A stretch of 15,005 nt of DNA from a virus: IMG/VR virus record IMGVR_UViG_3300045988_129841, positions 1-15,005 of that record, one strand, 5' to 3'. Each line of letters begins with the position of its first letter. Within the stretch, counting starts at the first letter, position 1. Both the position numbers and the translations under genes were made by a program. This document shows, one piece after another, positions 1 through 15,005 of this stretch. The notes below the pieces were generated by a model. The model searched no databases. It saw only the letters and a list, made by a program, of their open reading frames with translations, and was not told where the DNA came from.

Positions 1-9
1 CCTGTAATA

Positions 10-61
10 TGTCCACCACACACGGACACTTTTTCCCATTTGTCCACCACACACGGACACT
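10..61. repeat. Two 21-bp direct repeats TGTCCACCACACACGGACACT (10-30 and 41-61, period 31 bp) inside the ITR; candidate origin or terminal recognition elements
   Basis: The two copies are identical. Each contains a TGTCC...GGACA inverted half-site pair. They begin 9 nt from the genome end. Confidence 0.8.
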
Positions 62-239
62 AGCACAAATCACTAGAAAAGTCAATAGGCAATTCCAACA
101 AATTTTAATCTGAAAACAGCACAGATTTTGTGCAAATTAGACAATGAATTATCAGAAAATATTCGATTTCGACCACCAATTACAGAATATTCTGACAATT
201 CACAAAGATTTCTGACAATAAATTAGAACAAACGTTCGA

Positions 240-260
240 CTGTCCGCGGGCGGCGAACAG
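240..260. promoter_or_regulatory. GC-rich imperfect hairpin CTGTCCGCGGGCGGCGAACAG at the inner ITR boundary; possible terminator for the leftmost gene or a protein-binding element
   Basis: The arms CTGTCCGC and GCGAACAG pair with one mismatch. The element is strikingly GC-rich in an AT-rich genome. It lies just downstream (minus sense) of the stop of the 84-aa gene. Confidence 0.4.
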
Positions 261-285
261 CCGAGAAATAGAACACATGTTCGAA

Positions 286-540
286 TTATTCTATTATAAA
301 AATGTCTGAGATTGAGTATCTTTCATAATATCTCCCACGTAATTTCTCTGTCATTTTAATTAATTCTTCTATTTGTTCAACTTCTGCGAAATAGTAAAAA
401 TCTTCACTACAAAACTCTTGTGTTAGCACTTCTGCAACCACTTTTTTTACTTCAACATCAATAAATTCTTTTCTTTCATCATCGACACCGACTATTTCAT
501 TTCTTGTCTTGTAATAAATTCGTATAATTTTTGTTTCCAT
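286..540 (-). CDS. Hypothetical acidic 84-aa protein; solo transcription unit at the left genome end
   Basis: ATG start at 540 preceded by AAAGAGAGATAAAGAAA. It has its own consensus promoter and follows the late terminator. I recognised no similar protein. Confidence 0.6.
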   Translation of the reverse strand: METKIIRIYYKTRNEIVGVDDERKEFIDVEVKKVVAEVLTQEFCSEDFYYFAEVEQIEELIKMTEKLRGRYYERYSISDIFIIE

Positions 541-587
541 TTTCTTTATCTCTCTTTTCTGTTATGTTGTTTCCTTGTTCTGTAATT

Positions 588-616
588 ATAATATCATGTA
601 TTATAGAAAATGTCAA
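588..616 (-). promoter_or_regulatory. Sigma-A type promoter for the 84-aa gene
   Basis: Minus strand reads TTGACA (616-611), a 17-nt spacer ending in TGA, then TATTAT (593-588), giving an extended -10. It is part of a roughly 75-bp cassette repeated at 11893-11969. Confidence 0.7.
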
Positions 617-636
617 TACATATTTTAAAATTTTAC

Positions 637-670
637 AAAAAATTTTCTAGGGAATTTAATCCCTAGAAAA
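637..670 (-). terminator. Rho-independent terminator ending the long structural operon
   Basis: Minus strand reads UUUUCUAGGGA-UUAAAU-UCCCUAGAAAA followed by UUUUUU. It lies 8 nt after the tail-fibre stop codon. Confidence 0.8.
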
Positions 671-678
671 TCTATTTT

Positions 679-1977: not shown

Positions 1978-1994
1978 TTTTATGACCTCTCTTT

Positions 1995-2378
1995 CTAATA
2001 TGATAAAATTAATCTCCCGTATTCAGTCCCAGCTATGTCAACGTCTACGCCCTGTGTATTAAATATGATTTCGTCCCACCGTTCCGGAATGTTATAAATA
2101 ATATATCCTGCGTCTGAAATTTCTACAAAAATCATTGTAGCAAGGTATTTTTCAACGATTTTTTTAACTTCTACGTTGCCAAAATTTTCAAGCGTTTTTT
2201 CAATTTCAGCAATCTGCTTTCTCAGTTCTTCTATCTCTTCTTCTGTCTTATTATCCTCTCCCGTATATTCTCTTAATTTTTTTTCAATCAAAAGCACTCG
2301 GTCAAGCAACGTCATATTGTCAGTGTATACAATCGGCTGTGGTGGAAATCCACCGCCGCAATTTATAAAACCGCCCAT
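1995..2378 (-). CDS. Hypothetical virion-module protein with a central acidic coiled coil (127 aa from ATG 2378; the track starts at GTG 2387)
   Basis: The track start at 2387 is a GTG lying inside the SD sequence AAAGAGGTGA. The ATG at 2378 has ideal spacing from that SD. The gene sits between the lower collar and the fibre, so it may be a fibre adaptor or assembly protein. Confidence 0.6.
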   Translation of the reverse strand: MGGFINCGGGFPPQPIVYTDNMTLLDRVLLIEKKLREYTGEDNKTEEEIEELRKQIAEIEKTLENFGNVEVKKIVEKYLATMIFVEISDAGYIIYNIPERWDEIIFNTQGVDVDIAGTEYGRLILSY

Positions 2379-2393
2379 TTTTATCACCTCTTT

Positions 2394-3149
2394 CTAATAA
2401 ATCAACATGAATAAGTCGCAACAGTCGTCACATATCATTTTGTTAATGTTTAGAATGTTTTCACGAATTTTTTTGATTTCCTCTTGATAACTACCGGAAA
2501 AACCTTTTTCTTCGTGTTTCAAAATTCTGTTTTTATCGTCAATGTTTTTCGAAACGATATTCGTATTGCCGGAATCGTTGCTTAGTGTAGCGTCTGAATT
2601 TTCCACAACCTTTTTTGTTTGTCCACGCACTAAGTCACTTGCATAGTCATTTTGCGAAAAATTAATCTGCGGCGCGTCACTTGTGATAGATTGATTATCA
2701 CTTGTGCTATTACCGTGACCGTTACTATTGCTTGCGGCGCTATTATTATGCTTACTATCGTTTGTATAATCCGTGATGTTCGTCTCGTTGACTTTATCGG
2801 ATGAAGTGAATACACGATTTATAAGCGGCTCATATTCGAATAATGTTGTTCGGTAAAGTTCTTTATAATATGGCATGATTTCAAGCATTTTTTGCTTAAA
2901 AGCAAACTTCCACGCGTCCGGCGTTTCGAATCCTATTGATTCGTTGAAATAAGTATAACATAAATACTTCTCAAATTCAACCTTAATTTTTTCATTTTCT
3001 ACATAAAAAGGAAAATCAAAATCAAACAGTTTTGAATAGCAGTTTTCTACTAAATCGAATCCGCTATTTTTTCCGGCGTACATATCCACGCCGCCATAAT
3101 ACGCTAGTAAAAATCCTATTGATGTACTAGGATAACCAAGATTACTCAT
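2394..3149 (-). CDS. Probable lower collar protein (phi29 gp11 position) with a Ser/Asn-rich disordered insert
   Basis: It follows the portal gene directly with an ATGA start/stop overlap at 3146-3149. Size (251 aa) and synteny match gp11. I could not confirm direct sequence similarity. Confidence 0.55.
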   Translation of the reverse strand: MSNLGYPSTSIGFLLAYYGGVDMYAGKNSGFDLVENCYSKLFDFDFPFYVENEKIKVEFEKYLCYTYFNESIGFETPDAWKFAFKQKMLEIMPYYKELYRTTLFEYEPLINRVFTSSDKVNETNITDYTNDSKHNNSAASNSNGHGNSTSDNQSITSDAPQINFSQNDYASDLVRGQTKKVVENSDATLSNDSGNTNIVSKNIDDKNRILKHEEKGFSGSYQEEIKKIRENILNINKMICDDCCDLFMLIY

Positions 3150-4030
3150 TTTTCTCCTCCGTCCTCATTGTTAGTCATACCGAACTGCTGATACACACCG
3201 CTAACATCAATACTGCTAAGCGGCTCAACGTCAATATCTTTTTCGGTTAATCCGAATACTTTTCGAATCTGTATGCAACTTCTTTTTCTAAGTTCAAGTG
3301 CGCTTTTTAGATTAATTTCTGTAATACCGTTATTACTCTCAACCTCTCCCATTATCATACGTTCTTTTTTTGTGTCTCCGTTATTTGCAATTCCTATTTC
3401 TGTTAAAAAATCAGAAATTTCCTGCTTCATCAATGCTTGAATATTACTTGCGTTATACGGTACGTCAAGATTGAGGACTTTTAAACTGGTCATATCGAAC
3501 TTATCATTTACCGTTATCCACGGTATGAAATTAGCAAGTTGTTTGAAAAGATTTGAAACGCTTAATTTTGTATTACGATTTCCGGCGCATATATACGGCG
3601 TACGCAACGCAACTAGGTTTAAATCACGCGTTAGCCGCATGGTTGCCAATGCTTCGGCGTGCATTATGATAATATCGTTGTAAGGGTACTGGGTGTAGCT
3701 ATCATATATTAAGACGCTGTTTTCTTTTGTGTACTCTCCGACATAGTTATTTGCGTACGCGAAACGCATATCACCGTGATTATAATTATCCATTCGTCCG
3801 GCTTCATTAATCTTCGCTACTCCATAAAGTTCCGCTACTTCATCTTTAAAAAAGATAGCTTCACCATAATCTAATAGGATTTCTTCTAAAAATCGCGGCG
3901 GGATTTCTTCCGGTAACTTCCATTTAAAACGCGAAGTATATATATTTCTCAAAAGAAAATAATAACGTGTATAATATTGCTGATAGCGTTCCCCTTGGTT
4001 CATTGTGTTTTTCTCTTTACATGGATTCAT
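3146..4030 (-). CDS. Portal / upper collar connector protein (phi29 gp10-like)
   Basis: [29 protein letters not shown] resembles phi29 gp10 [48 protein letters not shown] resembles KKERMVTDEVSSNDEQIE. Size is 294 aa versus 309 aa, and synteny agrees. Confidence 0.85.
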   Translation of the reverse strand: [294 protein letters not shown]

Positions 4031-4048: not shown

Positions 4049-4070
4049 AAATGTTTCACGTGAAACATTT
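4049..4070. promoter_or_regulatory. Perfect 22-bp palindrome AAATGTTTCACGTGAAACATTT between the tail-knob and portal genes (copy A of a recurring element)
   Basis: The sequence is fully self-complementary. It overlaps the tail-knob stop codon by 2 nt and sits 6 nt upstream of the portal SD. Related copies occur at 10556-10595 and 11266-11289. Confidence 0.7.
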
Positions 4071-5658
4071 AATTATTTTCAACTGAGAAGTTTCCTACAT
4101 CATTTATATGCCAAAAGAACACTCCCTTTTCAATAATAGAAGTCAGCTTTTCCCTTGCCTGCGGTTCTGTGATACCTTTAAAAGTTACGTCTCTTGCCTG
4201 TAAATAATTCCACGCGCTCCTACTTTTAATATCCGGCTTCGCTATTTCTTCCACACGATAGCCATAAACCGTGAAAATGTTATCAATTTTTTTCAAGTAT
4301 TCCTCTGTACAATGTATTCTCACAACCCTTATTCCTAAATTTTTATTCCAAAAAGAAGTGTAGCCGCCCGCGCTTGTGAAAGACGCATCACTTGCTACGT
4401 CAGCGTGCTGAATTGTACTTGCAAGAGACACCGCACCACTAGCCGCGCTAGGTAAATTTCCGCTTAAAGCTGAAATACCGACGGTAGCCGCCTGCGCTCC
4501 GATTGCAATAGAATTATTCGCTAAGTACGCTTTGAGAGAATCAATCGGAACTCCTAATTTTGGAAAATCGTTATAAGAAATCTGATATTGCTTATTCTCC
4601 GCAAGATTACAATAGTTACGAGGTATCATTACCATGGTCGGAATGGTGTCCGGCGGCAACGAAATATCAAACGCGGCTCTTTCACCGCCGAAATATTCTA
4701 ATTTCAAACTTTCTAACGTGGTTTGTCCGTTATTCAGTCCAATGAAATTATACGGATAACAGAAACATTTATTATTTTTCGGTTTATAAGAACCGATAGA
4801 ATCACCGTATTTCTCAACTGATACACTGAATTTTTTTGTACCGGAAAAAATATAAGGCGCAAGCCCTATAGCAATTATGTTACTAGCTTCTTCCGTAGTC
4901 ATGTTATTAATCGCGGTTTGAATATCAGCCGCGCTCACATATGTATCATATGTACAACCGTAGTAAATACCGTCAATAATCTGCTTATCTCTTTCGCTTT
5001 CTTTCGTTGTCCATCGCATTAAAAAATAATAAATAGCGTTCGGAGAAGTGTCATTTTCCGCGGTGTCCGGTCTAGGTGGTATTAATCCCTCATGTACTGT
5101 AAATCCGGTCGGCGTTGGATATGTTCCGCTTTCGCTTATGGTGAACTCGCTAGAATCCGGATAGTTATATTCATACTGCCCAACTTCCAATCCCTCCGGA
5201 TATGTGTACGCTCCGATTATATCGTTTTTTTTCGCCACATGACTTCTTAAGATATAGCAAGGATTTATTTCAATTTTTGAAAAATTTTCCTGCCATACAT
5301 CTAATTCGAACGTTATTAAGCAACTGTTTACGCTAAGCGGTGTCACACCAGTAATAAAAGCGTAGTGATTTTTCTTCTCAAGCGGCTTATTTGAAAAGTA
5401 AAGATAATTACAGTTAAGCGGCTCAATTTCGTTATACGGAAGTCTTACAGTCAACTGTCCTATTTTAACCGGACTTGCGTTTACTTCCGTTTTTACTGTT
5501 TTTGAGAGAAGGAAAGTGTCCAACTCTGATACCGAATTAAACAACCGTATATTTTTATAACCGTTATCCCACGGTATACCGGCGCACAAATTGATTGTTG
5601 TCTCCGGTGCAAGTCCTATGATTTCATGTTGTGTCGGCATATCAATAAAGTTTTCCAC
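4069..5658 (-). CDS. Tail knob protein (phi29 gp9-like)
   Basis: The N-terminus (IPWDNGYKNIRLF ... HYAFITGV ... FELDVWQ) parallels phi29 gp9 (VPFSNDYKNTRWF ... FYAFVTEL ... FEIDVLQ). The C-terminus (YGYRVEEIAKPDIKSRSAWNYLQ ... GVFFWHINDVGNFSVEN) parallels YGYKINRVKKPNLRTRKAFNYVQ ... GITLWHTDNIGNYSVEN. The start is GTG at 5658, well spaced from GAGAGG; the next ATG, at 5640, is too far from the SD. Confidence 0.9.
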   Translation of the reverse strand: MENFIDMPTQHEIIGLAPETTINLCAGIPWDNGYKNIRLFNSVSELDTFLLSKTVKTEVNASPVKIGQLTVRLPYNEIEPLNCNYLYFSNKPLEKKNHYAFITGVTPLSVNSCLITFELDVWQENFSKIEINPCYILRSHVAKKNDIIGAYTYPEGLEVGQYEYNYPDSSEFTISESGTYPTPTGFTVHEGLIPPRPDTAENDTSPNAIYYFLMRWTTKESERDKQIIDGIYYGCTYDTYVSAADIQTAINNMTTEEASNIIAIGLAPYIFSGTKKFSVSVEKYGDSIGSYKPKNNKCFCYPYNFIGLNNGQTTLESLKLEYFGGERAAFDISLPPDTIPTMVMIPRNYCNLAENKQYQISYNDFPKLGVPIDSLKAYLANNSIAIGAQAATVGISALSGNLPSAASGAVSLASTIQHADVASDASFTSAGGYTSFWNKNLGIRVVRIHCTEEYLKKIDNIFTVYGYRVEEIAKPDIKSRSAWNYLQARDVTFKGITEPQAREKLTSIIEKGVFFWHINDVGNFSVENN

Positions 5659-5680: not shown

Positions 5681-6958
5681 TTAACCAGTGATTGTTACTG
5701 TTCCTGTTCCGGTGATTGAATTATCCCAGTGGGCTTTTACAGTCACGGTAAGACTTTCTGCCTTTTCGTCATTTGCAATCATTAACACGTTACTTCCCGG
5801 GACGAAAGCGGTGTGTGTAGAAGTATTTCCGCTGACTTCATAGTCAAAGGTCTGTAATACGTAATCCTCTGCGGTAGTTGGCGCGGCTAAAGCGGTGATT
5901 TTATACTCACTTCCTTTTTTCGCGTTCTCGATTGGTGTAACGTCAATCTTCTTCATGCTGACTGTTTTTGTGGTGAACGCAATACAAGGAAAAAACGGAC
6001 TATATGAATACATATTCTTAATGTTATAAAAATACGTCCAAGTCAAAGCCGCGCCGTTTTTACTGTCTGACATAACGCGATACTGTTCGCGAACTCTGTA
6101 CCAACGCATATCAAATAATGCTACCTTAATATCGTCATTGCCGAATGAATCAATTACAATCTTATGCGCTTCAATATCGGCTTTATTCATATTAAAGGCG
6201 TACGCCAATACGTCAACGTCCAGGACAGCGTCCACTTCCGGCGTTACCATATAATATATGCCGTCAAGGAGAGCGTTACTGTCTGCCCCTGCAATATTCA
6301 AATTCTTATTTGGGAACTTCATTTTTCCAATCCAAGTCTTCATTGCAATGGTTAACGCTTTCGCACTCGCTTCGTCTGTTGGGTCGGCAACCTGCACAGG
6401 AAAAAGCTGAGACGAATTATACGCCGAAACAATTAACTGCTTCATGGAAAGATATTCATCCCACTCTGCGCCGGATACGGTAGATTCTACTTTCGCTCGA
6501 ATCAAATCCATAATACCGTACTCTGTCTGAAAAGCATTACGCATATTATCATAAGTAACAGTAATCGGATACTGCAAAGCAGGTGACATATGATGATAAG
6601 CCGCCAAGACTTCCCCCTCATAGTATTTATACAGTACGGACGCGTCGGCGAATCCGTCAAAAACCTGCGCTTTCGCCATGTTAACGAAAATCTCCTGTTC
6701 AGTTGCACCGTATCGCATTGGGTTACTTTTTAACATTCCAAGTGGGTTTCTGAAGTACGCGGAATTGATGCGCCCCTGCACCATTTGTTCAATTAAGGCA
6801 GAAGCGAATGCGCTTCTAATTACTTCTACATTAAGAACCTGTTCATAAACTGATGCAATGTTTTCAAGTGTCACTTCCGGCAGTCTGTCGGCAGGAAGTA
6901 AACCGCTATTTCGCATAGCATTTAATACATTAACGTTCGTTGGTTTTACATCTCCCAT
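5681..6958 (-). CDS. Major capsid protein (phi29 gp8-like) with a C-terminal Ig-like (BIG2-type) domain
   Basis: LDVDVLAYAFNMNKADI resembles phi29 gp8 LDVDVLAKAFNMNRTDF, with further collinear matches. The beta-rich C-terminal roughly 90 aa ends in TVKAHWDNSITGTGTVTITG. The gene follows the scaffold gene. Confidence 0.9.
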   Translation of the reverse strand: MGDVKPTNVNVLNAMRNSGLLPADRLPEVTLENIASVYEQVLNVEVIRSAFASALIEQMVQGRINSAYFRNPLGMLKSNPMRYGATEQEIFVNMAKAQVFDGFADASVLYKYYEGEVLAAYHHMSPALQYPITVTYDNMRNAFQTEYGIMDLIRAKVESTVSGAEWDEYLSMKQLIVSAYNSSQLFPVQVADPTDEASAKALTIAMKTWIGKMKFPNKNLNIAGADSNALLDGIYYMVTPEVDAVLDVDVLAYAFNMNKADIEAHKIVIDSFGNDDIKVALFDMRWYRVREQYRVMSDSKNGAALTWTYFYNIKNMYSYSPFFPCIAFTTKTVSMKKIDVTPIENAKKGSEYKITALAAPTTAEDYVLQTFDYEVSGNTSTHTAFVPGSNVLMIANDEKAESLTVTVKAHWDNSITGTGTVTITG

Positions 6959-7838: not shown

Positions 7839-8603
7839 CTAGAATCCTCTTACGAAAGCGTCAAACCCTGCCTTAATAATCTGATTCCGGTAATTAACGG
7901 CGTTACTTTCCGATTCGAACGCGCCGCATTGAACACGGTAAAAGACGTCCTTTCTTTCAGTTATAAAACAATTAAAACCTTTTGTCTCAAGCTGTTTTTT
8001 TAAGTTTTCCGCGTTTTCTCTCCTTGCGAACGCCCCAACCTGCACTCTGTATAATTTAGAATTTATTTTCTTTTCACCTAAATTATAACATACTTTAAAA
8101 GTCTGTACAATAGCCTGTGCGATTTTTTCCTGTGAATTTTTAAAAACTGAAACATCATGATAATTTGTAATGAAGCCACATTCCAGTAACGCATATGGTT
8201 TATCAATTTTATCACAGTAATTCATATTCAGTAAATCTTTTCTAAGTTTTACGCCGCGATTAGAAAAACCGCAATTTGATACTTTTTCCGCAAGTGTCCG
8301 AGAGAAAACGCTATCGCGTTTGCATAAGACCTCCACACCCTGCGCGGTTTTATTCGCGTGTGAATTAAGGTGCAGTTCTAAGATAAAGTCAACGCTGTTA
8401 AAAAGTTCTTTCGCGTCGTTTGCGTTATTTTTAATGTCGCGATAAGAATTTCTATCTGTGTCATATTTTATTACGTCAGCTACCACATTTAACGCATTTA
8501 CTACATATCCTGCCAACTCCCTTGTCAAGTCTGCTTCTCTGAATCCGTTTCCAACAGCACCGCAATCCCCTGCTCCGTGTCCTGCGATTACAAGTATTTT
8601 CAT
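7839..8603 (-). CDS. Endolysin: N-acetylmuramoyl-L-alanine amidase (Amidase_3, CwlC-like) with a C-terminal SPOR domain
   Basis: Amidase_3 signature residues are visible: N-terminal VIAGHGAGDCGA, READ, ELHLNSHAN and LLECGFITN. The C-terminus (about aa 183-254) has two YRVQxGAF half-repeats typical of SPOR. The gene is directly downstream of the holin. Confidence 0.9.
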   Translation of the reverse strand: MKILVIAGHGAGDCGAVGNGFREADLTRELAGYVVNALNVVADVIKYDTDRNSYRDIKNNANDAKELFNSVDFILELHLNSHANKTAQGVEVLCKRDSVFSRTLAEKVSNCGFSNRGVKLRKDLLNMNYCDKIDKPYALLECGFITNYHDVSVFKNSQEKIAQAIVQTFKVCYNLGEKKINSKLYRVQVGAFARRENAENLKKQLETKGFNCFITERKDVFYRVQCGAFESESNAVNYRNQIIKAGFDAFVRGF

Positions 8604-8606: not shown

Positions 8607-9014
8607 TTATTCCTCTCTTTCTAGTAAATCTTCTAATATATTTTTTAATTTTTCCGGATATTTTACGCCGATTCTGCCTCCATTTTCTAAAATGCTGATA
8701 CAGTCATTCACCGTGAAAAATGTGATAACCATATCGCGCAAGCCTTTTATGCCGAACATTTCTCCTGTGTATTTTGCCATACATACAAAAAGTAACATTG
8801 TTAATTTTTTCAAAATTCCTCTGAATCCTGCTTTACTTGACAAGTGTCCGTTTTTTGTTTTTCCACTTTTTCCAAGTACAGCGGATATAATTCCGGTTAT
8901 ATAATCGACCGCCATAATTACAAGTAAACCGATAAACAAGCTATCGAACCCGCCGAAAATCTGACTAAAAATCCCTACTAATCCACCTAGTAAAATACTC
9001 CATTCTGTTTTCAT
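8607..9014 (-). CDS. Holin (phi29 gp14 / TcdE-type, Phage_holin_4_1-like)
   Basis: A 135-aa protein with several hydrophobic helices. It contains the motif VIMAVDYITGIISAVLGK ... SSKAGFRGILKK ... DCISILEN and a charged C-terminus. It lies upstream of the endolysin. Confidence 0.85.
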   Translation of the reverse strand: MKTEWSILLGGLVGIFSQIFGGFDSLFIGLLVIMAVDYITGIISAVLGKSGKTKNGHLSSKAGFRGILKKLTMLLFVCMAKYTGEMFGIKGLRDMVITFFTVNDCISILENGGRIGVKYPEKLKNILEDLLEREE

Positions 9015-9158
9015 TTTCCACTCTCCTATTTTTTCGCGGTTTTACGGTGGCTTAAGATTGCCACCGCGCCGCTGTTTATATATAAACCGCGTCCGGTAAT
9101 CACTCCGGCTAAAATGTGTTTTCCCACATGATTGAAAATTTGCTACGCGGTATATATC
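9015..9158 (-). other. GC-rich, highly structured 144-nt non-coding spacer; candidate ncRNA (possibly pRNA-like) or late regulatory region
   Basis: It is the largest internal non-coding gap. Hand-folding of the minus strand gives a 7-bp helix (ACCGCGU 9151-9145 with ACGCGGU 9092-9086) enclosing two hairpins (AUGUG-GGAAAA-CACAU and CCGG-AGUGAUUA-CCGG). This is followed by the 14-bp palindrome GTTTATATATAAAC and a strong hairpin CGGUGGC-AAUCUUAA-GCCACCG (9066-9045). My count for 9031-9110 is 41 G+C out of 80. Confidence 0.3.
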
Positions 9159-9383
9159 TTAATCACGATATCTAGTATAAGTAAATAGCAATGCTCTTAT
9201 AATTATCTCTCTCCCATCCAGAAGAGTCTTAATTGATAAGTCTTTCTCGTATGCGCTCGCTATTATTAAAATTTTTTCCATATTTTTTAGCTCTTCATAA
9301 ACCGTTATATCGAATTTTTTTCCATCCGTTAGTTTTTCTAATTCCTCGCCTTTTGTTCTTTCTATTAATTCATGTACTGTCAT
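9159..9383 (-). CDS. Hypothetical 74-aa protein; first gene after the third promoter cassette
   Basis: ATG at 9383 preceded by AAAGGAGA. The protein looks helical and is an orphan. Its position at the replication/late boundary makes a regulatory role possible but unproven. Confidence 0.55.
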   Translation of the reverse strand: MTVHELIERTKGEELEKLTDGKKFDITVYEELKNMEKILIIASAYEKDLSIKTLLDGREIIIRALLFTYTRYRD

Positions 9384-9475: not shown

Positions 9476-10543
9476 TTAAAAAATTTCCCTACCAATTAAA
9501 TGAAGAAAAGCATCTTTTGATTTCAAATCACAGAAACGCACCTGTCCTTGTGAATACGCTTCTTTTAAGGTCTGTGCTAAACCACTGAACCTTGTTAAAA
9601 GTATGGTATTTTCGCCGTGGTCGGCGTTGTCAAGCGTAAAGCACTTCGCGCCCTTATCTATTTTTTGGTTGATGTAGAGCAAATTATCTCTATGACATTC
9701 GCGAATTGCGAACCGTTCACCGTCCTGCACAAATGTTAAAAGGTATGTACTTTTTCCGGACAAATTCGCTATAAATTCATTATCGTTATAAATTCCGATA
9801 TTTTTTGTGGCGTACTGCACATGACGATTTCCCGCGAACGCTTTTGAAATTCCCAGTTCGCTTGTCTGTTTTTTCGCTGATTCGTTTACCGTTTCTACGT
9901 AAATGTAAGAATCACCGCGAATAATTCCGTTTTTATCCGGCTTCTCGCGATAACATCCCAACTGTAGCAAATAGGGATTTATCTGCGAAAAAGAGTTCCC
10001 AAGTAAAAAAAACTCAACTTCTTTTCCTTGTTTTCCGCTACCTCTTGAAATAGTATACGCAACGGACAGATACTTGTCAACCTCATTTTTTAAGTAGTCT
10101 TCTACTTTTTCAAGCTGGAATTCGTCCATGCCTGCTCTCTTCACTTTGTCAAAAATCGGACTGTATTTTTTTAACTTGTCACAATCGGAAATTGAAATCG
10201 CAAAGCCGATAATTTCGTCATGATTCATAATCTTACGAATAATGCCACTTGCTATAGGGATAGATGTTATTTCCATATCTGGAAATTTGTCTGCTACTAC
10301 GCAAGAAAAGATACTATCAACACCTAGCATTTCTGAACGCGTCCTGTATTCTAACACAAATTGACCATTTCCGGCGCGAAACTGCTTAATGAAATACCAC
10401 AGTAAAGAATAAGTCTTACCGCCGCTTCGGTTCGTTGCGTAAATACGTATAGACGGTATTCTATTATGTTTATCAGCTATGTCAAGGTAGTCCATAATAT
10501 TAAAAAAACCTTTATCGAATTTATGTGTTATCTCGTTTTTCAT
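9476..10543 (-). CDS. DNA encapsidation (packaging) ATPase, phi29 gp16-like
   Basis: Walker A is ATNRSGGKTYS (G41-T44) and Walker B is AGMDEF. FFLLGNSFSQINPYLL parallels gp16 CICLSNAVSVVNPYFL. Size is 355 aa versus 332 aa. Confidence 0.85.
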   Translation of the reverse strand: MKNEITHKFDKGFFNIMDYLDIADKHNRIPSIRIYATNRSGGKTYSLLWYFIKQFRAGNGQFVLEYRTRSEMLGVDSIFSCVVADKFPDMEITSIPIASGIIRKIMNHDEIIGFAISISDCDKLKKYSPIFDKVKRAGMDEFQLEKVEDYLKNEVDKYLSVAYTISRGSGKQGKEVEFFLLGNSFSQINPYLLQLGCYREKPDKNGIIRGDSYIYVETVNESAKKQTSELGISKAFAGNRHVQYATKNIGIYNDNEFIANLSGKSTYLLTFVQDGERFAIRECHRDNLLYINQKIDKGAKCFTLDNADHGENTILLTRFSGLAQTLKEAYSQGQVRFCDLKSKDAFLHLIGREIF

Positions 10544-10604: not shown

Positions 10605-10946
10605 TTAAATAGAAGCGTAATAATATTCGCGTCCTGCATTACTCTTCCCTGTCTTAATGATTACATCCATATCTTTCGCGCCGCCTGTGATTTCATCATC
10701 GAATACATCCGCTACAACTTCCATGGATTCTACCATTGTCGGTGAAATTGTTCCGATGAAATCTCCGTCACTTGTCTTAATGACTACGGTCTTTACTTCG
10801 TCACCGTTCACATTCGTGGTTGTCCCGAAGATAATTCCGGAAACTTTTACAGTGGTGTTTTTAAAATCAGTTACTGCTTTCGCGTCATTGTTCGCGCGTA
10901 CGAAATCTTTTTTGTCTGTAATGTTATACGTGTTTGTAATTTTCAT
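10605..10946 (-). CDS. Probable single-stranded DNA-binding protein (phi29 p5-like)
   Basis: KTVVIKTSDGDFIGTISPTMVESMEVVADV ... VIIKTGKSNAGREYYYASI parallels phi29 p5 [30 protein letters not shown] ... VKVVQGTSSKGNVFFSLQL. Size is 113 aa versus 124 aa. The comparison is by eye, from memory. Confidence 0.55.
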   Translation of the reverse strand: MKITNTYNITDKKDFVRANNDAKAVTDFKNTTVKVSGIIFGTTTNVNGDEVKTVVIKTSDGDFIGTISPTMVESMEVVADVFDDEITGGAKDMDVIIKTGKSNAGREYYYASI

Positions 10947-10997: not shown

Positions 10998-11228
10998 TTA
11001 CTCGACTACTTTTGAATACTTGATGAAATCTTCGTCAGAAAGTTCACGTTTTTCTTGTACCGGATATTCATAAATCAATTTATGATTCTCGTCATATCCG
11101 TTTTCTGATAAAATTTTCTTCGCGGCTTTCGGTGAATACGTGTTTTTCGGCAATTTCAAATTTGCCACTGTTTCCCCTGCCTTATTTAAGACAGAAAAAA
11201 CATGATGTTTTGTGATTGTTCTAAGCAT
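10998..11228 (-). CDS. Possible histone-like dsDNA-binding protein (phi29 p6-like)
   Basis: RTITKHHVFSV...GE.V..LKLP and EKRELSDEDFIKYSKV weakly parallel phi29 p6 REITKTTVNVA...GEVQVEQLP and EVYELPVEKFLEVATV. It is adjacent to the SSB-like gene, as in phi29. The match is weak. Confidence 0.35.
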   Translation of the reverse strand: MLRTITKHHVFSVLNKAGETVANLKLPKNTYSPKAAKKILSENGYDENHKLIYEYPVQEKRELSDEDFIKYSKVVE

Positions 11229-11265: not shown

Positions 11266-11289
11266 AAAATGTTTCGCGTGAAACATTTT
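11266..11289. promoter_or_regulatory. Copy C of the recurring palindrome: AAAATGTTTC-GCGT-GAAACATTTT
   Basis: It has 10-bp arms around a 4-nt centre. It overlaps the stop codon of the 130-aa gene. On the minus strand it is followed by UAAAAUAAAAAAAU. Confidence 0.6.
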
Positions 11290-11680
11290 AAAACCTGTCT
11301 TCTAATACAACTCCGATTGGTGTCATATCGTAAACGTTATAAAAAACCGGTCTATATATAGAACAAGTTAAAGTGTCAGTCACACCGCGCCGCAAGTCTC
11401 GCGTTAACATGAATTGATATATATGTTCGCTACACCAAGTAATGTCAGTGTAGTAAATTGCTTCGCCATTCTCCATATAATAAAGAGGATTATCGCGGTG
11501 TTTTAAAAAATCTTTTACTTTTTCAGACATTGTTGAAAGTTTTCTTTCGTACTCATATTCCGGAACGAACCTTATTAATTCGTCAACTGATAGCGTCATT
11601 GGTTCGTTACATAAATCTTTTAAATTGTCAACCGTTTCTAAATACCATTTTCTACTAGTCTTTATGATTGTTGTCTGCAT
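11288..11680 (-). CDS. Hypothetical 130-aa early protein
   Basis: ATG at 11680 preceded by AAAAGGAGA. It is tightly coupled to the upstream 64-aa gene. I recognised no motif. Confidence 0.6.
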   Translation of the reverse strand: MQTTIIKTSRKWYLETVDNLKDLCNEPMTLSVDELIRFVPEYEYERKLSTMSEKVKDFLKHRDNPLYYMENGEAIYYTDITWCSEHIYQFMLTRDLRRGVTDTLTCSIYRPVFYNVYDMTPIGVVLEDRF

Positions 11681-11696: not shown

Positions 11697-11891
11697 CTAA
11701 AAAGACAAATAGTCTATTAAAAGTTCTTTACTAGCACCGTTGTCCATTAAATGTTTAAACAAATCATTATAAATACCGTTGTTAATGGCTACATTTACAT
11801 ACGATTCTAATAAATCATGTGACGGTTTAATAGACAGAAGTCTCTGTCCTAAGATAAGTGTTAAGTTCTGCATTAATAATTTGTGTTCCAT
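11697..11891 (-). CDS. Hypothetical 64-aa early protein
   Basis: ATG at 11891 preceded by AAAGAGAGGTAAAGAAAA. It is the first gene after a consensus promoter. I recognised no motif. Confidence 0.55.
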   Translation of the reverse strand: MEHKLLMQNLTLILGQRLLSIKPSHDLLESYVNVAINNGIYNDLFKHLMDNGASKELLIDYLSF

Positions 11892-11940
11892 TTTTCTTTA
11901 CCTCTCTTTTTCTGTTATGTTGTTTCTTGTTTCTGTAATT

Positions 11941-11969: not shown

Positions 11970-14083
11970 CTGTTTTTTTCAATTTTTTCAAAATCTTTTA
12001 TTTTCTGACAACTCATAATAATATTAGAATATTCATCTGTAACGCCTAAAGTATATGTGGTTTCCACAATGCCAATATTACTGGAAGTGGTGAAAGTATC
12101 ACCATTTACCGTAATCTTGAATATTTTATCGGTGTCGTTATAATAAGCTGTTGACCGTCCGACATTTTCAAAAGTATTCCCTATTTTAAAATTCCCAGCA
12201 TTTCCTACGACTTTCGCGCCTTTTTCTTTCGCCATCCCCGCAACCGTAATTCCGAATACATATTTGTTTTTCTTTTTATCAAAAGTTTCATAACAGTATT
12301 TTTTCGCGCCCAGCGTCTTAAAGGTCTTGTATTCTGCATCTTTTTCAAATATTCCGGCGTAACACAATTGACCTTTTGAATTTTTCGCTACAAGACAAGT
12401 GTCACTTTTTTTCGCTTCTTCTATCAATTTTCTATTGTAATCTTCGAACGCTAATTCGTGGTCATTAAAAAATTTATCTGAATCGGTGTCAACGTAAACG
12501 GTGTCATTTCCGGTTATTCTGATAGCGTCATAAAGTTGTGCACGTCCATATGCCGGCACAAAAACGCCTTGCTGATAAATTAAAAAGTTCTTCCGTGATT
12601 TATAAAAACTTTCCAAGTCTTTTTTTAACTTGTCAGCGTCAGCCTTTACGCTTGACCATTCGCCGCCACTCCAATTTATTATATCATGACATATATCCGT
12701 AATTTCCATTCCGTACGCTCCATTGAGTTTATTCTTACTTTTCATGTATTCATAATAAGCGGCTTCTATCCCTTTAAGTTTTGTTTTCGCTTCATAAAAT
12801 TCAAGATTCTGCTGTCGGTATTCAAGATTCATTCTCTCTTTTCTACAGTACATGAATTTAACAAGCTGAAAAGAAGATATATTATAAACTTCTTTTATAA
12901 TCTCATAATCAACATTCGTAATAGTTATCATGATTTCTTTCGCGGAAAGAAGTTTACCGTTATCGTTTAAAATGTCACAATGTTCCTTGCATTTTGAGAT
13001 TGAAATATAAGGAATCGGCGTGTTTTTTTTCGTTTCTATATTGAAAAATCGAACCGTAAAAATGCAAGCGTAATTTTCACATAAAAAGTCAAGTTCTTTT
13101 TTCGTTTCGATACTGATTTCCGACCATTTACCAACCGGAAAAAGTTTACTTTCTGACTGGTACGGATAACTACTTTGAATATCTCTACTATGTAGATTTT
13201 TTAAAATTTGATTCGAATAAAAGCGGTTAGCGTGAGCCACGCCACCGGAAACCGCGTCACGGCATTGCGTATATTCTTCCGGTGAAAGTGCGGAAGAAAG
13301 AAAAAGAGTACGATTCATGGGATTGGCGGTAACGGCGTTCCGAAAATCATTACGAACATATCCGGTAGAAGTGAGCGGGATTCTTAATATATCATACTCC
13401 GTTAATTTCTCCGCTATACATTCACATAAACCGCGTACATCATTATAATTATAAGCCTTTTCATATTCTCTTAATTCTGTTCGTGGAGTACGAATTTTTT
13501 TATAATTAAATTCTTCTCCGTTTAACTTCATATGAACACAAGTCTTAGAATTTTCACAAAATTTACTCAGGCTCATATTAGACAGGAAATAAGAGCAACG
13601 CCATTCAAAGCCTCCACCGGACAGTTTAAGCGGTTTACGTTCATCTTTCGCAAAAAGGTCTGAAACCGTAATAAAATTCTGGATATACTGAAACTCGAAA
13701 GAAAGGTTATGCACGTAAACAACTAGTCGTTGTTTATCATTTAGACACATAGTTTTTTTTAAACGCGCAAGAAAAATCTGAAAATCTTCCCATGTACGCC
13801 CAAAAACTACCGTATCAATTAAGCAGAATTGCCAATGATACATAAAGCCGAACGGTGGCGTATCGTAAATTTTTCTACCGTGATTATCATATATAAAATG
13901 CGGTTCGATTGTCGTTGTCTCAATGTCAAACGCTGCCGGAATATTAAAAGCAGAATATCCGTGTTTACCTTTTTTTGTCACAATTTCACAGTCAGCAAAC
14001 ATATCATAAGGAAAATCGTTTATATTATAAATTTTTTCCATGCTCATTGTATTGTCTTTTAAAGGTACATTTATAATTTCCAT
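11966..14083 (-). CDS. Family-B, protein-primed DNA polymerase (phi29 gp2-like)
   Basis: Motifs read directly: ExoI FDIETTT (D53/E55), ExoII HNLSFEF, ExoIII YNYND (Y211/D215), motif A DIQSSYPY (D301), motif B KLNGAYG (K452), motif C YVDTDS (aa 530-535, nt 12496-12479) and KxY LGAKKY. It is coupled to the upstream gene (TAA, two A, then ATG). Confidence 0.95.
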   Translation of the reverse strand: MEIINVPLKDNTMSMEKIYNINDFPYDMFADCEIVTKKGKHGYSAFNIPAAFDIETTTIEPHFIYDNHGRKIYDTPPFGFMYHWQFCLIDTVVFGRTWEDFQIFLARLKKTMCLNDKQRLVVYVHNLSFEFQYIQNFITVSDLFAKDERKPLKLSGGGFEWRCSYFLSNMSLSKFCENSKTCVHMKLNGEEFNYKKIRTPRTELREYEKAYNYNDVRGLCECIAEKLTEYDILRIPLTSTGYVRNDFRNAVTANPMNRTLFLSSALSPEEYTQCRDAVSGGVAHANRFYSNQILKNLHSRDIQSSYPYQSESKLFPVGKWSEISIETKKELDFLCENYACIFTVRFFNIETKKNTPIPYISISKCKEHCDILNDNGKLLSAKEIMITITNVDYEIIKEVYNISSFQLVKFMYCRKERMNLEYRQQNLEFYEAKTKLKGIEAAYYEYMKSKNKLNGAYGMEITDICHDIINWSGGEWSSVKADADKLKKDLESFYKSRKNFLIYQQGVFVPAYGRAQLYDAIRITGNDTVYVDTDSDKFFNDHELAFEDYNRKLIEEAKKSDTCLVAKNSKGQLCYAGIFEKDAEYKTFKTLGAKKYCYETFDKKKNKYVFGITVAGMAKEKGAKVVGNAGNFKIGNTFENVGRSTAYYNDTDKIFKITVNGDTFTTSSNIGIVETTYTLGVTDEYSNIIMSCQKIKDFEKIEKNS

Positions 14084-14085
14084 TT

Positions 14086-14652
14086 TTAATCCTCAAAAGG
14101 TATAGAATCTTTTTCAAGTGTCAAATATTCAAATTTACTTATCTTTCCTTGTTGATACTGTTTAAAAGCCGCTTGAATATCTTTTTCCGTGAATCCTTTT
14201 CCAAGTTTCGCGATATAATCATCAATTGCTATTGGGCTACCTACAGCCGCTTTCATTTTATCATACATGCCGGATTGCGCAAACTCGTAAAAATCGCGGT
14301 AATCTTCATCCGTCTGTAAATTGACCTTGTTAATTTCCGCGATTCTTTTTCCGTATTCAATGGCTTTCTCTTTGTAGCCGCGAAGCGTGGAAGTTTCCGA
14401 CTGTAAAAATTCCAAAACTTGAGAAAGTTCTTTTTCAAGATTCTTTTCGGTGGTTCGTTTTGAACTGGAAAAGAATTTCCGATTTTCGTCTTTTAAATAT
14501 TTATTCGCTTTTTTCACGGAAAGTGCAGACAAGTCTTGCGCTTTAAAATTCCGCAGACGTTTATTCGCAGTTTTCACAAGACTTTTCAAAAGTTCAACTT
14601 TTCCGTGTTCGTTAAAATCGTCAATTTCAATTGCGTTATAATCTCTTATCAT
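14086..14652 (-). CDS. Putative terminal protein (phi29 gp3 position)
   Basis: It is immediately upstream of, and translationally coupled to, the polymerase gene. The N-terminal basic helix LLKSLVKTANKRLRNFKA resembles phi29 TP YARLVKNTKAKIARTKKK. The C-terminal QYQQGKISKFEYL resembles EQYRRGDFDLSL. At 188 aa it is shorter than the 266-aa phi29 protein. Confidence 0.5.
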   Translation of the reverse strand: MIRDYNAIEIDDFNEHGKVELLKSLVKTANKRLRNFKAQDLSALSVKKANKYLKDENRKFFSSSKRTTEKNLEKELSQVLEFLQSETSTLRGYKEKAIEYGKRIAEINKVNLQTDEDYRDFYEFAQSGMYDKMKAAVGSPIAIDDYIAKLGKGFTEKDIQAAFKQYQQGKISKFEYLTLEKDSIPFED

Positions 14653-14669
14653 AAAATCACCTCATATAT

Positions 14670-14698
14670 ATTATAATACAGATTTCAGAAAAAAGCAA
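14670..14698 (-). promoter_or_regulatory. Early promoter for the terminal-protein/polymerase operon
   Basis: Minus strand reads TTGCTT (14698-14693), a 17-nt spacer, then TATAAT (14675-14670). The leader to the SD GAGGTGA is short. It lies just inside the right ITR. Confidence 0.65.
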
Positions 14699-14745
14699 GA
14701 CGGATATATTCGAACACAATTTCGAACATATGTTCTAAAACTCGG

Positions 14746-14766
14746 CTGTTCGCCGCCCGCGGACAG
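14746..14766. promoter_or_regulatory. Right-end copy of the GC-rich ITR-boundary hairpin
   Basis: Reverse complement of 240-260. It lies about 50 bp upstream of the -35 of the terminal-protein/polymerase promoter. Confidence 0.4.
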
Positions 14767-14944
14767 TCGAACGTTTGTTCTAATTTATTGTCAGAAATCT
14801 TTGTGAATTGTCAGAATATTCTGTAATTGGTGGTCGAAATCGAATATTTTCTGATAATTCATTGTCTAATTTGCACAAAATCTGTGCTGTTTTCAGATTA
14901 AAATTTGTTGGAATTGCCTATTGACTTTTCTAGTGATTTGTGCT

Positions 14945-14996
14945 AGTGTCCGTGTGTGGTGGACAAATGGGAAAAAGTGTCCGTGTGTGGTGGACA
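14945..14996. repeat. Mirror copies of the 21-bp terminal direct repeats in ITR-R (14945-14965 and 14976-14996)
   Basis: Reverse complement of 10-61. Confidence 0.8.
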
Positions 14997-15005
14997 TATT
15001 ACAGG

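Follow-up and report, generated by a model that had tools for sequence, protein, structure and literature searches.

The stretch of viral DNA analysed here (the window, 15,005 bp, 36.7% G+C) raises the question of whether it represents one entire phage genome and, if so, of what kind and with what machinery for copying and packaging its DNA. We consider it about 85% probable that the window spans the entire linear genome of a phi29-like tailed podophage, so far uncultured, that uses protein priming and carries a candidate prohead RNA (pRNA). A sequence-only reading had proposed a complete, protein-primed genome of phi29 type, bounded by terminal inverted repeats (ITRs) and with its genes on one strand, and all tests that we ran support that proposal.

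The arms of the ITR coincide with the first and last bases of the window, and an exact reverse-complement match bears out the perfect 265-bp repeat described earlier. Beyond it the repeat continues with four mismatches (266-268 and 276) up to 285 nt and then decays; thus 265 bp is the length of the perfect portion and 285 bp that of the recognisable repeat. Metagenome assemblers can generate terminal inverted duplications, and in one relative (L042) an apparent 466-bp 'ITR' begins with Nextera adapter sequence. A fold-back or other assembly artefact is scarcely credible here, however, because the diverged 20-base extension of the repeat would not arise from fold-back. Moreover, relatives at about 84-88% identity carry homologous, diverged ITRs at both ends, the cultured phages HM2 (189 bp), AD70P2 (68 bp) and Cp-1 (236 bp) also have ITRs, and no adapter sequence was found at the window ends.

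An independent ENA contig (k119_34015) shares the terminal base and has one mismatch over the 13,040 bases compared, and three complete IMG/VR relatives, collinear and 14.4-15.0 kb long, all end within the ITR, none past the window ends. Homology with the relative L006 stops at window position 2. Alternatively, the contig could derive from a prophage, represent a linear replicon resembling a plasmid, or be part of a longer genome that was cut at a repeat. In L006, 77 nt of foreign, G+C-rich, bacterial-looking sequence lie past the terminus, and phi29-related 'plasmids' are on record from Clostridium beijerinckii and Enterococcus faecalis (Evseev 2024 review). Because the L006 extension is a lone case about one assembler k-mer long, it fits a chimera. 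We regard these possibilities as very unlikely: both window ends are ITR ends, an independent assembly stops at the identical base, complete relatives have the same order and similar length, and the gene set covers replication, packaging, lysis and the virion, with no integrase found in Pfam searches. Against a prophage in particular, no relative lies inside a long bacterial contig or chromosome; the genomes of 185,579 species yielded only two short MAG contigs, and of the 550 members of the terminal-protein family, the 120 listed all lie on contigs of at most 14.7 kb.

Nineteen ORFs, covering 90.7% of the sequence, were taken as genes (Table 1), and all 19 lie on the minus strand, in agreement with the strictly one-directional layout reported before. 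In 18 of them an AGAGAGG/GGAGG-type RBS precedes the listed start by 6-10 nt; in the exception (ORF 1995-2387) the listed GTG crowds the RBS, so the start was moved 9 nt downstream to an ATG. Plus-strand ORFs were set aside as unsupported antisense overlaps. GC skew is negative in all windows of the calculation, and no tRNA genes were found in the genome.

Table 1. Features of the window in order of position, with the basis for each call
Feature	Position	Strand	Basis or remark
Left ITR, perfect part	1..265	.	exact reverse complement of 14741-15005; recognisable to 285
Two 24-nt direct repeats in ITR	7-30 + 38-61	.	AT[A/T]TGTCCACCACACACGGACACT; mirror 14945-14999
G+C-rich 12-bp hairpin, inner ITR edge	236..264	-	terminator-like site; mirror 14742-14770
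ORF84	286..540	-	own promoter-like site
Promoter-like site	616-588	-	precedes ORF84
12-bp hairpin, candidate terminator	642..671	.	between fibre gene and last promoter
Tail fibre or appendage candidate, 432 aa	679..1977	-	weak SGNH/GDSL esterase domain
ORF127	1995..2378	-	start at ATG 9 nt downstream of listed GTG
Lower collar, gp11-type	2394..3149	-	phrog_5472, phrog_3225
Portal / upper collar connector, gp10-type	3146..4030	-	Phage_connector PF05352, E 4e-40
Conserved palindrome ATGTTTCACGTGAAACAT	4051..4068	.	copies 11269-11286 and, imperfect, 10558-10579
Tail knob, gp9-type	4069..5658	-	phi29_gp9_C/Caud_tail_N, PF20934 + PF16838
phi29-type major capsid protein	5681..6958	-	Phi29_MCP PF25622, E 1e-68
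Scaffold candidate, 83 aa, acidic	6976..7227	-	position only
gp13-type tail lysozyme, N-terminal domain only	7237..7836	-	Phage_lysozyme2 PF18013, E 6e-30
Endolysin, N-acetylmuramoyl-L-alanine amidase + SPOR	7839..8603	-	Amidase_3 PF01520, PF05036
Holin	8607..9014	-	Phage_holin_4_1 PF05105, E 2e-32
pRNA candidate	9036..9159	-	three-way-junction fold, conserved, covarying
pRNA candidate, domain-II hairpin	9036-9072	-	predicted fold
pRNA candidate, domain I, three-way junction	9080-9159	-	predicted fold
pRNA candidate, bulge AAUC	9130-9133	-	complementary to D-loop GAUU 9098-9101
ORF74, fast-evolving	9159..9383	-	only 43% aa identity in L006
Promoter-like site	9458-9429	-	precedes ORF74
gp16-type DNA packaging ATPase	9476..10543	-	Podovirus_Gp16 PF05894, E 1e-16; phrog_2150
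ORF113, possible OB-fold ssDNA-binding protein	10605..10946	-	AF2 + Foldseek
ORF76	10998..11228	-	ORF with RBS
ORF130a	11288..11680	-	56% identity in L006
ORF64	11697..11891	-	RBS; promoter-like site upstream
Strong promoter-like site	11969-11941	-	precedes ORF64
Protein-primed family-B DNA polymerase, 705 aa	11966..14083	-	DNA_pol_B_2 PF03175; phrog_1907
Terminal-protein candidate, 188 aa, predicted all-helical	14086..14652	-	synteny; ends 2 nt before polymerase start
Candidate early promoter TTGCTT-17-TATAAT	14670..14698	-	putative; just inward of right ITR, upstream of terminal-protein gene
Right ITR, perfect part	14741..15005	.	recognisable from 14721; ENA contig shares terminal base

Within the replication set proposed earlier, the type-B polymerase stands on its Pfam match and the terminal protein on synteny, while the label 'p5/p6-like' lacks sequence support. 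Motifs Exo I, Exo III, A, B, C and KxY of the polymerase are invariant, and a profile of its clade, compared with PDB sequences, matches only the phi29 DNAP (E 3.6e-17). Immediately upstream of the polymerase, a homologue of the terminal-protein candidate occurs in 63 of the 63 relatives whose polymerase ORF was located by script, astrithr, AD70P2 and HM2 among them; these homologues are mostly 165-215 aa long (119-312 overall), and no member of their family bears a name. It is from this conserved synteny only that we infer a terminal protein, as comparisons of sequence and fold detected no resemblance to the terminal proteins of phi29 or Cp-1. ORF113 may possibly be an OB-fold ssDNA-binding protein: its AF2 model (pLDDT 69) is matched best in Foldseek by SSB-like PrgE (E 0.03-0.05, probability 0.75-0.93) and by ribosomal proteins with an OB fold, a faint hint, and its sequence shows no similarity to p5 or p6 of phi29. 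Replication would begin at both ends by protein priming, with the 188-aa product acting as terminal protein for the phi29-type polymerase and the 265-bp ITR carrying the origin, including the pair of 24-nt repeats that lies in the outermost 61 bp. These repeats are conserved in L006 and may serve as origin or as recognition elements for the terminal protein or polymerase.

Overall, the identities of ten proteins are established. The packaging, virion and lysis genes named before were recovered by HMM (ATPase, capsid, knob, portal, collar, lysozyme, holin and amidase), and the scaffold is a candidate by position: it lies immediately upstream of the capsid gene, like phi29 gp7, with no HMM match and no similarity to gp7 itself. 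Identity to the phi29 capsid, knob, portal, collar, gp13 and gp16 proteins is 27-34% (34% for gp13, 31% for gp11). The fibre candidate scores 30.5 bits against PF13472 (SGNH/GDSL), under the Pfam cut-off of 32.9; it is 35% identical to its positional counterpart in L011 and is replaced in L079. During packaging, the gp16-type ATPase would be expected to act on the gp10-type portal.

The most informative feature of this genome is a previously unreported structured RNA at 9036-9159, which we predict to be a packaging RNA. Its fold is conserved and covaries. The minimum free energy is -45.6 kcal/mol (z -5.8), and nucleotide identity in relatives is 86-97%; in L006 it reaches 96.6%, next to an ORF74 with only 43% amino acid identity. 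Across 14 distinct RNA sequences, 87.8% of cells are paired, compared with 34-43% in slid controls, and 19 of 30 pairs show double-sided changes, compared with 2-5; the covariance model CM R2 gives a score of 50.7 bits. All 14 sequences can form the 4-bp helix between bulge and loop, two positions of which covary, and among relatives this complementarity of 4-5 nt changes in concert (AAUC/GAUU, AACC/GGUU, CACC/GGUG). The phi29 pRNA has the same order of elements (A helix, C helix, bulge, E hairpin, D hairpin), its loop pair AACC/GGUU is that of type B, and domain II, absent in type C, is likewise optional in phi29; in contrast, the RNA lies mid-genome here and at the genome end in phi29. Furthermore, HM2, L008 and AD70P2 have RNAs that cannot be aligned with this one yet share its architecture, its complementary bulge and loop, and its position adjoining the ATPase gene. 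Each complementarity has a chance probability of 0.01-0.1. By analogy with phi29 pRNA, the RNA would assemble into a ring on the prohead, in which the bulge of one molecule pairs with the loop of another (AAUC with GAUU).

Alternatively, 9036-9159 may not serve packaging but act in cis within an mRNA, as a leader that controls the holin and lysis genes downstream or as a 3'-UTR stabiliser or attenuator behind the ATPase operon, for example, or it may be an RNA whose bulge and loop form an intramolecular pseudoknot. In types A, B and C the holin RBS follows it directly, no promoter or terminator of its own is obvious, and its bulge-loop covariation fits intramolecular and intermolecular pairing alike. 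Nor is there cross-detection with phi29 pRNA: Rfam gave no match (RF00044 was unmatched even at E<=10 with a 181-nt query), and a model built from the candidate did not detect phi29 pRNA. However, RNAs of this architecture in HM2 and L008 have on their 3' side a terminator-like hairpin with a U-run, and the separate ORF downstream is Tad2-like or a GH25 endolysin, not a holin; in AD70P2, too, the RNA is directly 3' of the ATPase gene. The one constant neighbour is thus the gene for the packaging ATPase, which is never more than 0.5 kb away. Taken with the element order, loop pair and optional domain shared with phi29, this leaves these alternatives jointly unlikely, although with an appreciable chance, and a packaging RNA remains our prediction. 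In the literature searched, no pRNA has been described outside Bacillus phages. The structured RNA was absent from the sequence-only reading.

In regard to expression, matches to the promoter consensus suggest that transcription would run one way along the minus strand from four sigma-A-type promoter-like sites (~14698, 11969, 9458 and 616). The order would be replication genes, packaging ATPase, pRNA, lysis cassette, head, tail and a last small gene, with stops at the hairpin 671-642 and within the left ITR, where the hairpin 236..264 is a candidate terminator because it lies 3' of the last gene on this strand.

Our findings also place the genome among its relatives. Its size, ITR length and one-strand layout had been presented as departures from phi29; this is true of phi29 itself, but such traits are not new and are ordinary in the wider group, as Cp-1, HM2, AD70P2 and Astrithrvirus have long ITRs, genomes of 11-17 kb or near-unidirectional layouts. 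In Cp-1, 25 of the 28 genes share a strand, as do all non-nested ORFs of at least 60 aa except one in HM2 and 14 of 15 genes in AD70P2 (an Amedibacillus phage of 12.3 kb; HM2 infects Clostridium). The Astrithr genome measures 11.6 kb. The proposed distinct lineage is indeed separate from every classified phage, but public metagenome collections already contain it in unannotated form: besides the ENA near-match, three IMG/VR contigs share about 84-88% nucleotide identity with the window, and the polymerase of a fourth is 93% identical. From these sequences and the shared traits it follows that the genome is an unclassified phage of an already catalogued phi29 type. Its host is probably a member of the gut Bacillota, judging from the origin of the relatives.

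A candidate packaging (prohead) RNA, or pRNA, lies in the 144-nt gap that separates ORF74 from the holin gene, and no other non-coding stretch of the window is as rich in G+C. On the coding strand the gap folds at -45.6 kcal/mol (z = -5.8), as good a fold as none of 200 shuffles reached, and in four close relatives the RNA keeps 86-97% nucleotide identity against 43% amino acid identity in the neighboring ORF74, with two compensatory changes inside this close set. A covariance model built from window-clade RNAs only (R1) matched about 25 distant relatives whose polymerases are about 40% identical; these matches are weak (E 0.3-10), full-length and strictly syntenic, were confirmed by direct inspection, and fall on RNAs with a G+C content of 0.52 in otherwise A+T-rich genomes. 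In minimum-free-energy folds, type A of the window clade and types B and C of distant relatives (loci L039 and L057) share one architecture: a long A helix leads into a three-way junction, and then come, in this order, a C helix, a bulge of 8 nt, an E hairpin whose loop is GRAAAA(A), and a D hairpin. When 14 distinct sequences are aligned, 87.8% of paired cells are standard pairs compared with 34-43% in slid controls, 19 of 30 pairs are altered on both sides compared with 2-5 in the controls, and covariation supports all helices. The coding strand is fixed by G-U pairs.

Coordinates of the features in the window
Feature	Position	Strand	Basis
Inverted terminal repeat (ITR), perfect part	1-265 / 14741-15005		exact reverse complement
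Terminal-protein candidate, 188 aa	14086-14652	-	synteny
DNA_pol_B_2 polymerase	11966-14083	-	PF03175
ORF113, possible SSB	10605-10946	-	structure model
Podovirus_Gp16 ATPase	9476-10543	-	PF05894
pRNA candidate	9036-9159	-	fold, covariation
Second RNA hairpin	9036-9072	-	fold
Holin	8607-9014	-	Pfam/PHROGs
Endolysin, Amidase_3+SPOR	7839-8603	-	Pfam/PHROGs
Phage_lysozyme2, matches N-terminal domain of phi29 gp13	7237-7836	-	Pfam/PHROGs
Scaffold candidate	6976-7227	-	position only
Phi29_MCP capsid	5681-6958	-	PF25622, E 1e-68
gp9-type tail knob	4069-5658	-	PF20934
gp10-type connector	3146-4030	-	PF05352
gp11-type lower collar	2394-3149	-	phrog_5472
Fiber candidate, 432 aa	679-1977	-	SGNH/GDSL match, sub-threshold
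Promoter-leader cassette before ORF64	11907-11999	-	repeat
Promoter-leader cassette before ORF74	9394-9458	-	repeat
Promoter-leader cassette before ORF84	554-646	-	repeat
Palindrome copies	4051-4068, 11269-11286, 10558-10579		repeat

With regard to function, the order of the helices and the complementarity of bulge to D loop are the same as in phi29 pRNA, which was folded for reference. The four bulge/D-loop pairs are standard in all 14 sequences, and both sides change in two of the four aligned columns: the window clade has AAUC/GAUU, type B AACC/GGUU, and type C CACC/GGUG; the type B pair is that of phi29 (AACC in the bulge, GGUU in the D loop). This covariation fits intermolecular and intramolecular bulge-loop pairing alike. 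The second hairpin, present in types A and B and missing from type C, parallels domain II of phi29 pRNA, which is dispensable (PMC11476376). A gp16-type ATPase and a gp10-type connector co-occur with the RNA in the window, and in every subclade the RNA and the ATPase gene are no more than 0.5 kb apart. The order of the genes around the RNA differs: ATPase, ORF74, RNA, holin in the window, and RNA, holin, ATPase in types B and C (L039, L057), where the amidase gene is found upstream of the terminal-protein gene.

Homology to phi29 pRNA is not demonstrable, and the likeness is one of equivalent design only, because models fail in both directions. With the Rfam model RF00044, neither the whole window (E ≤ 1) nor the RNA regions 9000-9180 and L039 5770-5960 (E ≤ 10) gave a match, and a model built from the three RNA types (R2) did not detect phi29 pRNA. 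Rfam scans of the window and of the RNA region returned chance matches only (snR13, NEAT1, mir-35). Searches with R2, with filters off as well as on, gave no match in Clostridium phage HM2, relative locus L008, Amedibacillus phage AD70P2, phi29, Cp-1, or the Salmonella phage astrithr. In IMG/VR, a loose gapped pattern for the type B and C RNAs matched unrelated contigs, and its result was set aside.

In HM2, L008, and AD70P2, RNAs were located by folding the gap adjoining the ATPase gene. These RNAs cannot be aligned to that of the window, but they have the same architecture and complementary bulge/loop pairs of their own, GUAGU/ACUAC in HM2, GACU/AGUC in L008, and UAUCC/GGAUA in AD70P2, where the whole RNA is only about 65 nt. 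For the pairs of the window clade, types B and C, HM2, and L008, five of the six known outside phi29, the chance probability of each complementarity is 0.01-0.1. Folding the ATPase-adjacent gap of two further relative loci, L009 and L012, revealed no convincing equivalent, and in astrithr, where the genes abut, there is no pRNA-like element beside the ATPase gene. Alternatively, an RNA that stands just ahead of the holin gene, as it does in the window and in types B and C, might serve as a leader for that gene. In HM2 and L008, however, a terminator-like hairpin with a U-run comes after the RNA, and behind it stands a separate ORF (Tad2-like or GH25 endolysin) instead of a holin, which argues against such a role, and the constant neighbor of the RNA is the packaging ATPase gene. 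The Tad2-like (anti-Thoeris) protein gene of HM2 lies just downstream of its RNA, at 6313-6555.

According to a 2024 review, only phi29 and its relatives among the Bacillus phages have a pRNA (PMC11476376), the further pRNAs that a structure-based search added in 2025 are all from Bacillus phages (PMC12670572), and our literature search found no report of pRNA outside phi29-related Bacillus phages. We nonetheless give a probability of about 0.7 to the reading that the window RNA and its counterparts in at least six non-Bacillus phi29-like subclades, including cultured HM2 and AD70P2, are true prohead RNAs, and consider it just as likely that the window RNA taken singly is a real packaging RNA. 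If this is true, pRNA-dependent packaging would be old and widespread in the phi29-like supergroup instead of peculiar to Bacillus Salasmaviridae, and its RNAs would have escaped detection because their sequences diverged past the reach of the Rfam model. Such a result would overturn the idea of pRNA as confined to Bacillus phages and is testable in two cultured phages, HM2 and AD70P2. The RNAs also bear on whether the packaging-motor RNA is ancestral, and they supply new, very compact three-way-junction scaffolds, as in AD70P2.

The genome that carries this RNA has the one-directional layout that the sequence-only reading described. The minus strand carries all 19 ORFs taken as genes, which together make up 90.7% of the sequence. 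Each 1-kb segment has a negative GC skew, and no tRNA gene was found. An AGAGAGG/GGAGG-type ribosome-binding site stands 6-10 nt upstream of the listed start in 18 of the 19; in the remaining one, ORF 1995-2387, the GTG given as start is too near this site, and the start was set at an ATG 9 nt downstream (1995-2378). The same reading had proposed a full phi29-type gene set with visible but low similarity to phi29. Pfam and PHROGs uphold this for the polymerase, gp16 ATPase, capsid, knob, portal, collar, gp13-type lysozyme, holin, and endolysin, and tblastn against phi29 gives 26-34% identity for six proteins (capsid 27%, portal 27%, collar 31%, knob 30%, gp13 34%, gp16 26%). The p5- and p6-like proteins in that set gained no sequence support: no small ORF resembles phi29 p4, p5, p6, or p7, and blastp of all window proteins found nothing below E = 0.05 among phi29 p1, p3, p4, p5, p6, p7, p16.7, and p17 or Cp-1 orf6, orf7, and scaffold. 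A p6-like protein has no support in the window. The medium-confidence AF2 model of ORF113 has as its top Foldseek matches the SSB-like protein PrgE (OB-fold) and OB-fold ribosomal proteins (E 0.03-0.05, probability 0.75-0.93), a weak hint from modeling that ORF113 may be an SSB. In the fiber region, a relative that is elsewhere collinear with the window at about 84% nucleotide identity (L079) is without a match (L079 494-1903 versus window 680-2296), which suggests that the receptor-binding module has been swapped.

The ORF that ends 2 nt before the polymerase start has a homolog directly upstream of the polymerase in 63 of 63 relatives in which a script could locate the polymerase ORF. These homologs, mostly 165-215 aa long (range 119-312), include astrithr gp02, AD70P2 gp13, and a 312-aa protein of HM2. 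We infer from this synteny that the ORF encodes the terminal protein, there being no sequence or fold link to the terminal proteins of phi29 or Cp-1. The candidate has no match in Pfam or PHROGs, iterated HMM searches starting from it never recruited the phi29 and Cp-1 terminal proteins, HHalign against these two gave a probability of 0.4%, and its all-helical AF2 model (pLDDT 68.8) has no Foldseek match in the PDB below E = 2.9. Terminal proteins notoriously resist alignment between genera. The family has 550 members in a large protein collection, none of them named, and among the 120 members listed the longest contig is at most 14.7 kb. Ser139 of the window protein is invariant and is a candidate priming residue. 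The family genes of HM2 (1150-2088) and L008 (1425-2336) show a duplication of the N-terminal first domain, with about 300 aa versus about 190 aa.

A profile of 15 clade polymerases has a single match in the PDB, phi29 DNA polymerase (E 3.6e-17), over residues 140-471, a span that in the published phi29 numbering we take to include TPR1 and TPR2. The profile was required, as a single-sequence phmmer search of the PDB with the window polymerase found no match. Exo I, Exo III, motifs A, B, and C, and KxY are invariant in the clade, and these motifs, the PDB match, and PF03175 together identify a protein-primed family-B polymerase. Exo II reads HNLSFEF (N126-E130, window 13694-13708), and its Glu130, which would stand where phi29 has the catalytic Asp66, does not vary among the 15 clade polymerases of the alignment, those of astrithr and AD70P2 included. 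By tblastn, the nearest classified or cultured polymerases are those of HM2 (48% identity over 98% of the length), AD70P2 and AD70P3 (40%), and Astrithrvirus (about 31%), and none of the 34 matches is a Salasmaviridae record. In a comparison with Guelinviridae, whose Clostridium perfringens podophages include phiZP2 and CpV1, the phiZP2 polymerase is 25.7% identical to that of the window over 58% of its length only, and the nearest phage carrying the family label is AD70P2 at 40%.

These polymerase identities and a best INPHARED capsid match of 34% agree with the earlier proposal of a distinct lineage, which we regard as unclassified but of a known kind. Megablast of the whole window against INPHARED found no match, and Salasmaviridae are not close, with capsids 22-31% identical and neither a nucleotide nor a tblastn polymerase match. 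HM2 (LT600745, unclassified Caudoviricetes, 17.5 kb) has the closest cultured polymerase and is 2.5 kb longer than the window. It shares with the window a terminal-protein-family gene directly upstream of the polymerase, a single strand for its non-nested ORFs of at least 60 aa, with one exception, a long ITR (189 bp), a three-way-junction RNA directly after the ATPase gene, and the palindrome TGTTTCRCGTGAAACA. Unlike the window, which has an amidase+SPOR endolysin, it carries a GH25 endolysin and a Tad2-like gene; its structural proteins are 26-30% identical, and there is no nucleotide similarity. AD70P2 and AD70P3 (OP172638/9, 12.3 kb, 26.7% G+C) are filed under Guelinviridae by NCBI, a placement that needs clarification (PMC11476376). 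Both phages come from human gut or sewage. AD70P2 also has the upstream terminal-protein-family gene, a 68-bp ITR, and a compact pRNA-like junction right after the ATPase gene, but one of its 15 genes lies on the opposite strand, and the polymerase is the sole tblastn match shared with the window at E ≤ 1e-3.

The sequence-only reading had set the window apart from the phi29 paradigm by its size, ITR, and layout. These departures are real with respect to phi29, a Bacillus phage of the Salasmaviridae with 19.3 kb, a 6-bp ITR, divergent early and late operons, a terminal protein without detectable similarity to window proteins, and its pRNA at the left end with the ATPase last in the late operon, whereas in the window the ATPase and the pRNA candidate come before the genes for lysis and head. 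The departures are ordinary in the wider group of phi29-like protein-primed podophages, which takes in Salasmaviridae, Guelinviridae, Rountreeviridae, and allied genera, as Cp-1, AD70P2, HM2, and astrithr show. The Streptococcus phage Cp-1 (Salasmaviridae, Cepunavirus; 19.3 kb) resembles the window in its 236-bp ITR, in a left-end terminal protein followed by the polymerase, and in a shared strand for 25 of its 28 genes, but its right end holds three reverse-strand ORFs, and its lysis genes come last; its polymerase is unmatched by tblastn at E ≤ 1e-5, and its capsid is 22% identical. Astrithr (Astrithrvirus, 11.6 kb), which shares the terminal-protein-candidate family and the Exo II Glu, has 11 of 15 genes on one strand, an 18-bp ITR, and a Gram-negative host. 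Two things are mildly distinctive in the window. One is the complete lack of reverse-strand genes, with even the last small gene, ORF84, having a predicted same-strand promoter of its own; the other is the gene order of replication genes, ATPase, pRNA candidate, lysis cassette, head, and tail. A 2024 survey counts about 2,000 phi29-related sequences, many of them 12-17 kb, from human metagenomes, and assigned to Bacillota (PMC11476376). The earlier novelty claim shrinks. The genome itself adds little, since gut phi29-like phages of 11-17 kb with long ITRs and near-unidirectional layouts are already catalogued and the sequence is already in public assemblies; its value lies in the pRNA-like RNA, which covariation supports, as an RNA of gut Bacillota phages.

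The gene set, the ends, and the relatives support the view that the window is a complete, ITR-bounded, protein-primed phi29-type genome. Its two arms begin at the first and last base and are exact reverse complements over 265 bp, as befits a linear genome; the repeat can be traced to 285 nt with four mismatches (266-268, 276) and decays beyond. The exact window polymerase is present on four contigs of 10-20 kb. One of these, ENA ERZ27229666 k119_34015 (14,819 bp), starts at the terminal base of the window and has one mismatch to it over the 13,040 bases compared. Three complete IMG/VR relatives (14,433-14,483 bp, about 84-88% nucleotide identity, collinear genome-wide) stop within the ITR at both ends, as would be expected if the assembler collapsed the ITR, and none runs past the window termini. 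Polymerases 92-93% identical and the same pRNA candidate occur in IMG/VR UViG 3300045988_118989, _128940, and _135873 and 3300029711_000042; the IMG/VR relatives and the ENA contig are all without annotation or classification. A scan of one genome each of 185,579 species matched two short MAG contigs only. A 15,041-bp relative (L006/L071) reaches the phage terminus, and its homology to the window ends at window base 2. There, 77 unrelated nt (L006 1-77, equal to L071 7588-7664; 55% G+C, an open reading frame) abut the terminus. This single case is probably a chimeric join at the physical end, integration or ligation also being conceivable. Assembly can produce inverted repeats by folding back, but this origin is unlikely because the inner extension is diverged, the homologous ITRs of relatives are diverged, and cultured HM2, AD70P2, and Cp-1 have ITRs. 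The apparent 466-bp ITR of the IMG/VR locus L042 opens with an Illumina Nextera adapter (…TCGTCGGCAGCGTCAGATGTGT), as noted for positions 1-40 and the other end of the locus; it is at least partly a library artifact and was discarded as evidence, and ITR-based completeness flags can mislead on such contigs.

As a proposed working of this genome, origins would lie in the terminal ITR and include two 24-nt repeats (7-30 and 38-61), which occupy the terminal 61 bp of each ITR and are conserved in L006. The 5' terminal CC might, speculatively, allow one-base sliding-back with a terminal-protein-dCMP primer. A TTGCTT-17-TATAAT site at 14698-14670 would be the promoter for the terminal-protein gene, strong sites of the TTGACA type at 11969, 9458, and 616 would each drive transcription ahead of a small ORF, and hairpins at 671-642 and 264-236, after the fiber gene and the last gene, would serve as transcription ends. 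The packaging motor would combine a gp16-type ATPase, a gp10-type portal, and an RNA ring, and the cell would be lysed by the holin, the amidase, and the gp13-type lysozyme, which is virion-associated. At its inner edge the perfect ITR has a G+C-rich hairpin of 12 bp (236-264 and 14742-14770); the left-end copy is terminator-like and faces incoming transcription, and the right-end copy stands a short way upstream of the candidate early promoter.

The one-way layout, together with a clade-conserved 16-bp palindrome, bears on how early and late timing works without divergent operons. The palindrome, (A)TGTTTCRCGTGAAACA(T), is perfect over 16-18 bp and has two to three copies in the window, where chance would give 0; each copy sits closely behind a stop codon, in a short gap. 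It is found in 52 of the 76 loci compared, and relatives with polymerases only about 40% identical, among them HM2, L008, and L042, have 1-4 sites per genome. It may be bound as an operator by a conserved regulator, or it may act as a conserved hairpin in RNA. The three promoter-leader cassettes, each preceding a small unknown ORF, resemble one another over 26-92 nt (79% over 92 nt for two of them) and combine a TTGACA element with a spacer of 17-18 nt, a TG-extended -10 element, and a leader that is conserved (AACAAGGAAAC...ACAGAAAAG), a pattern that suggests co-regulated transcription units within the one-directional genome.
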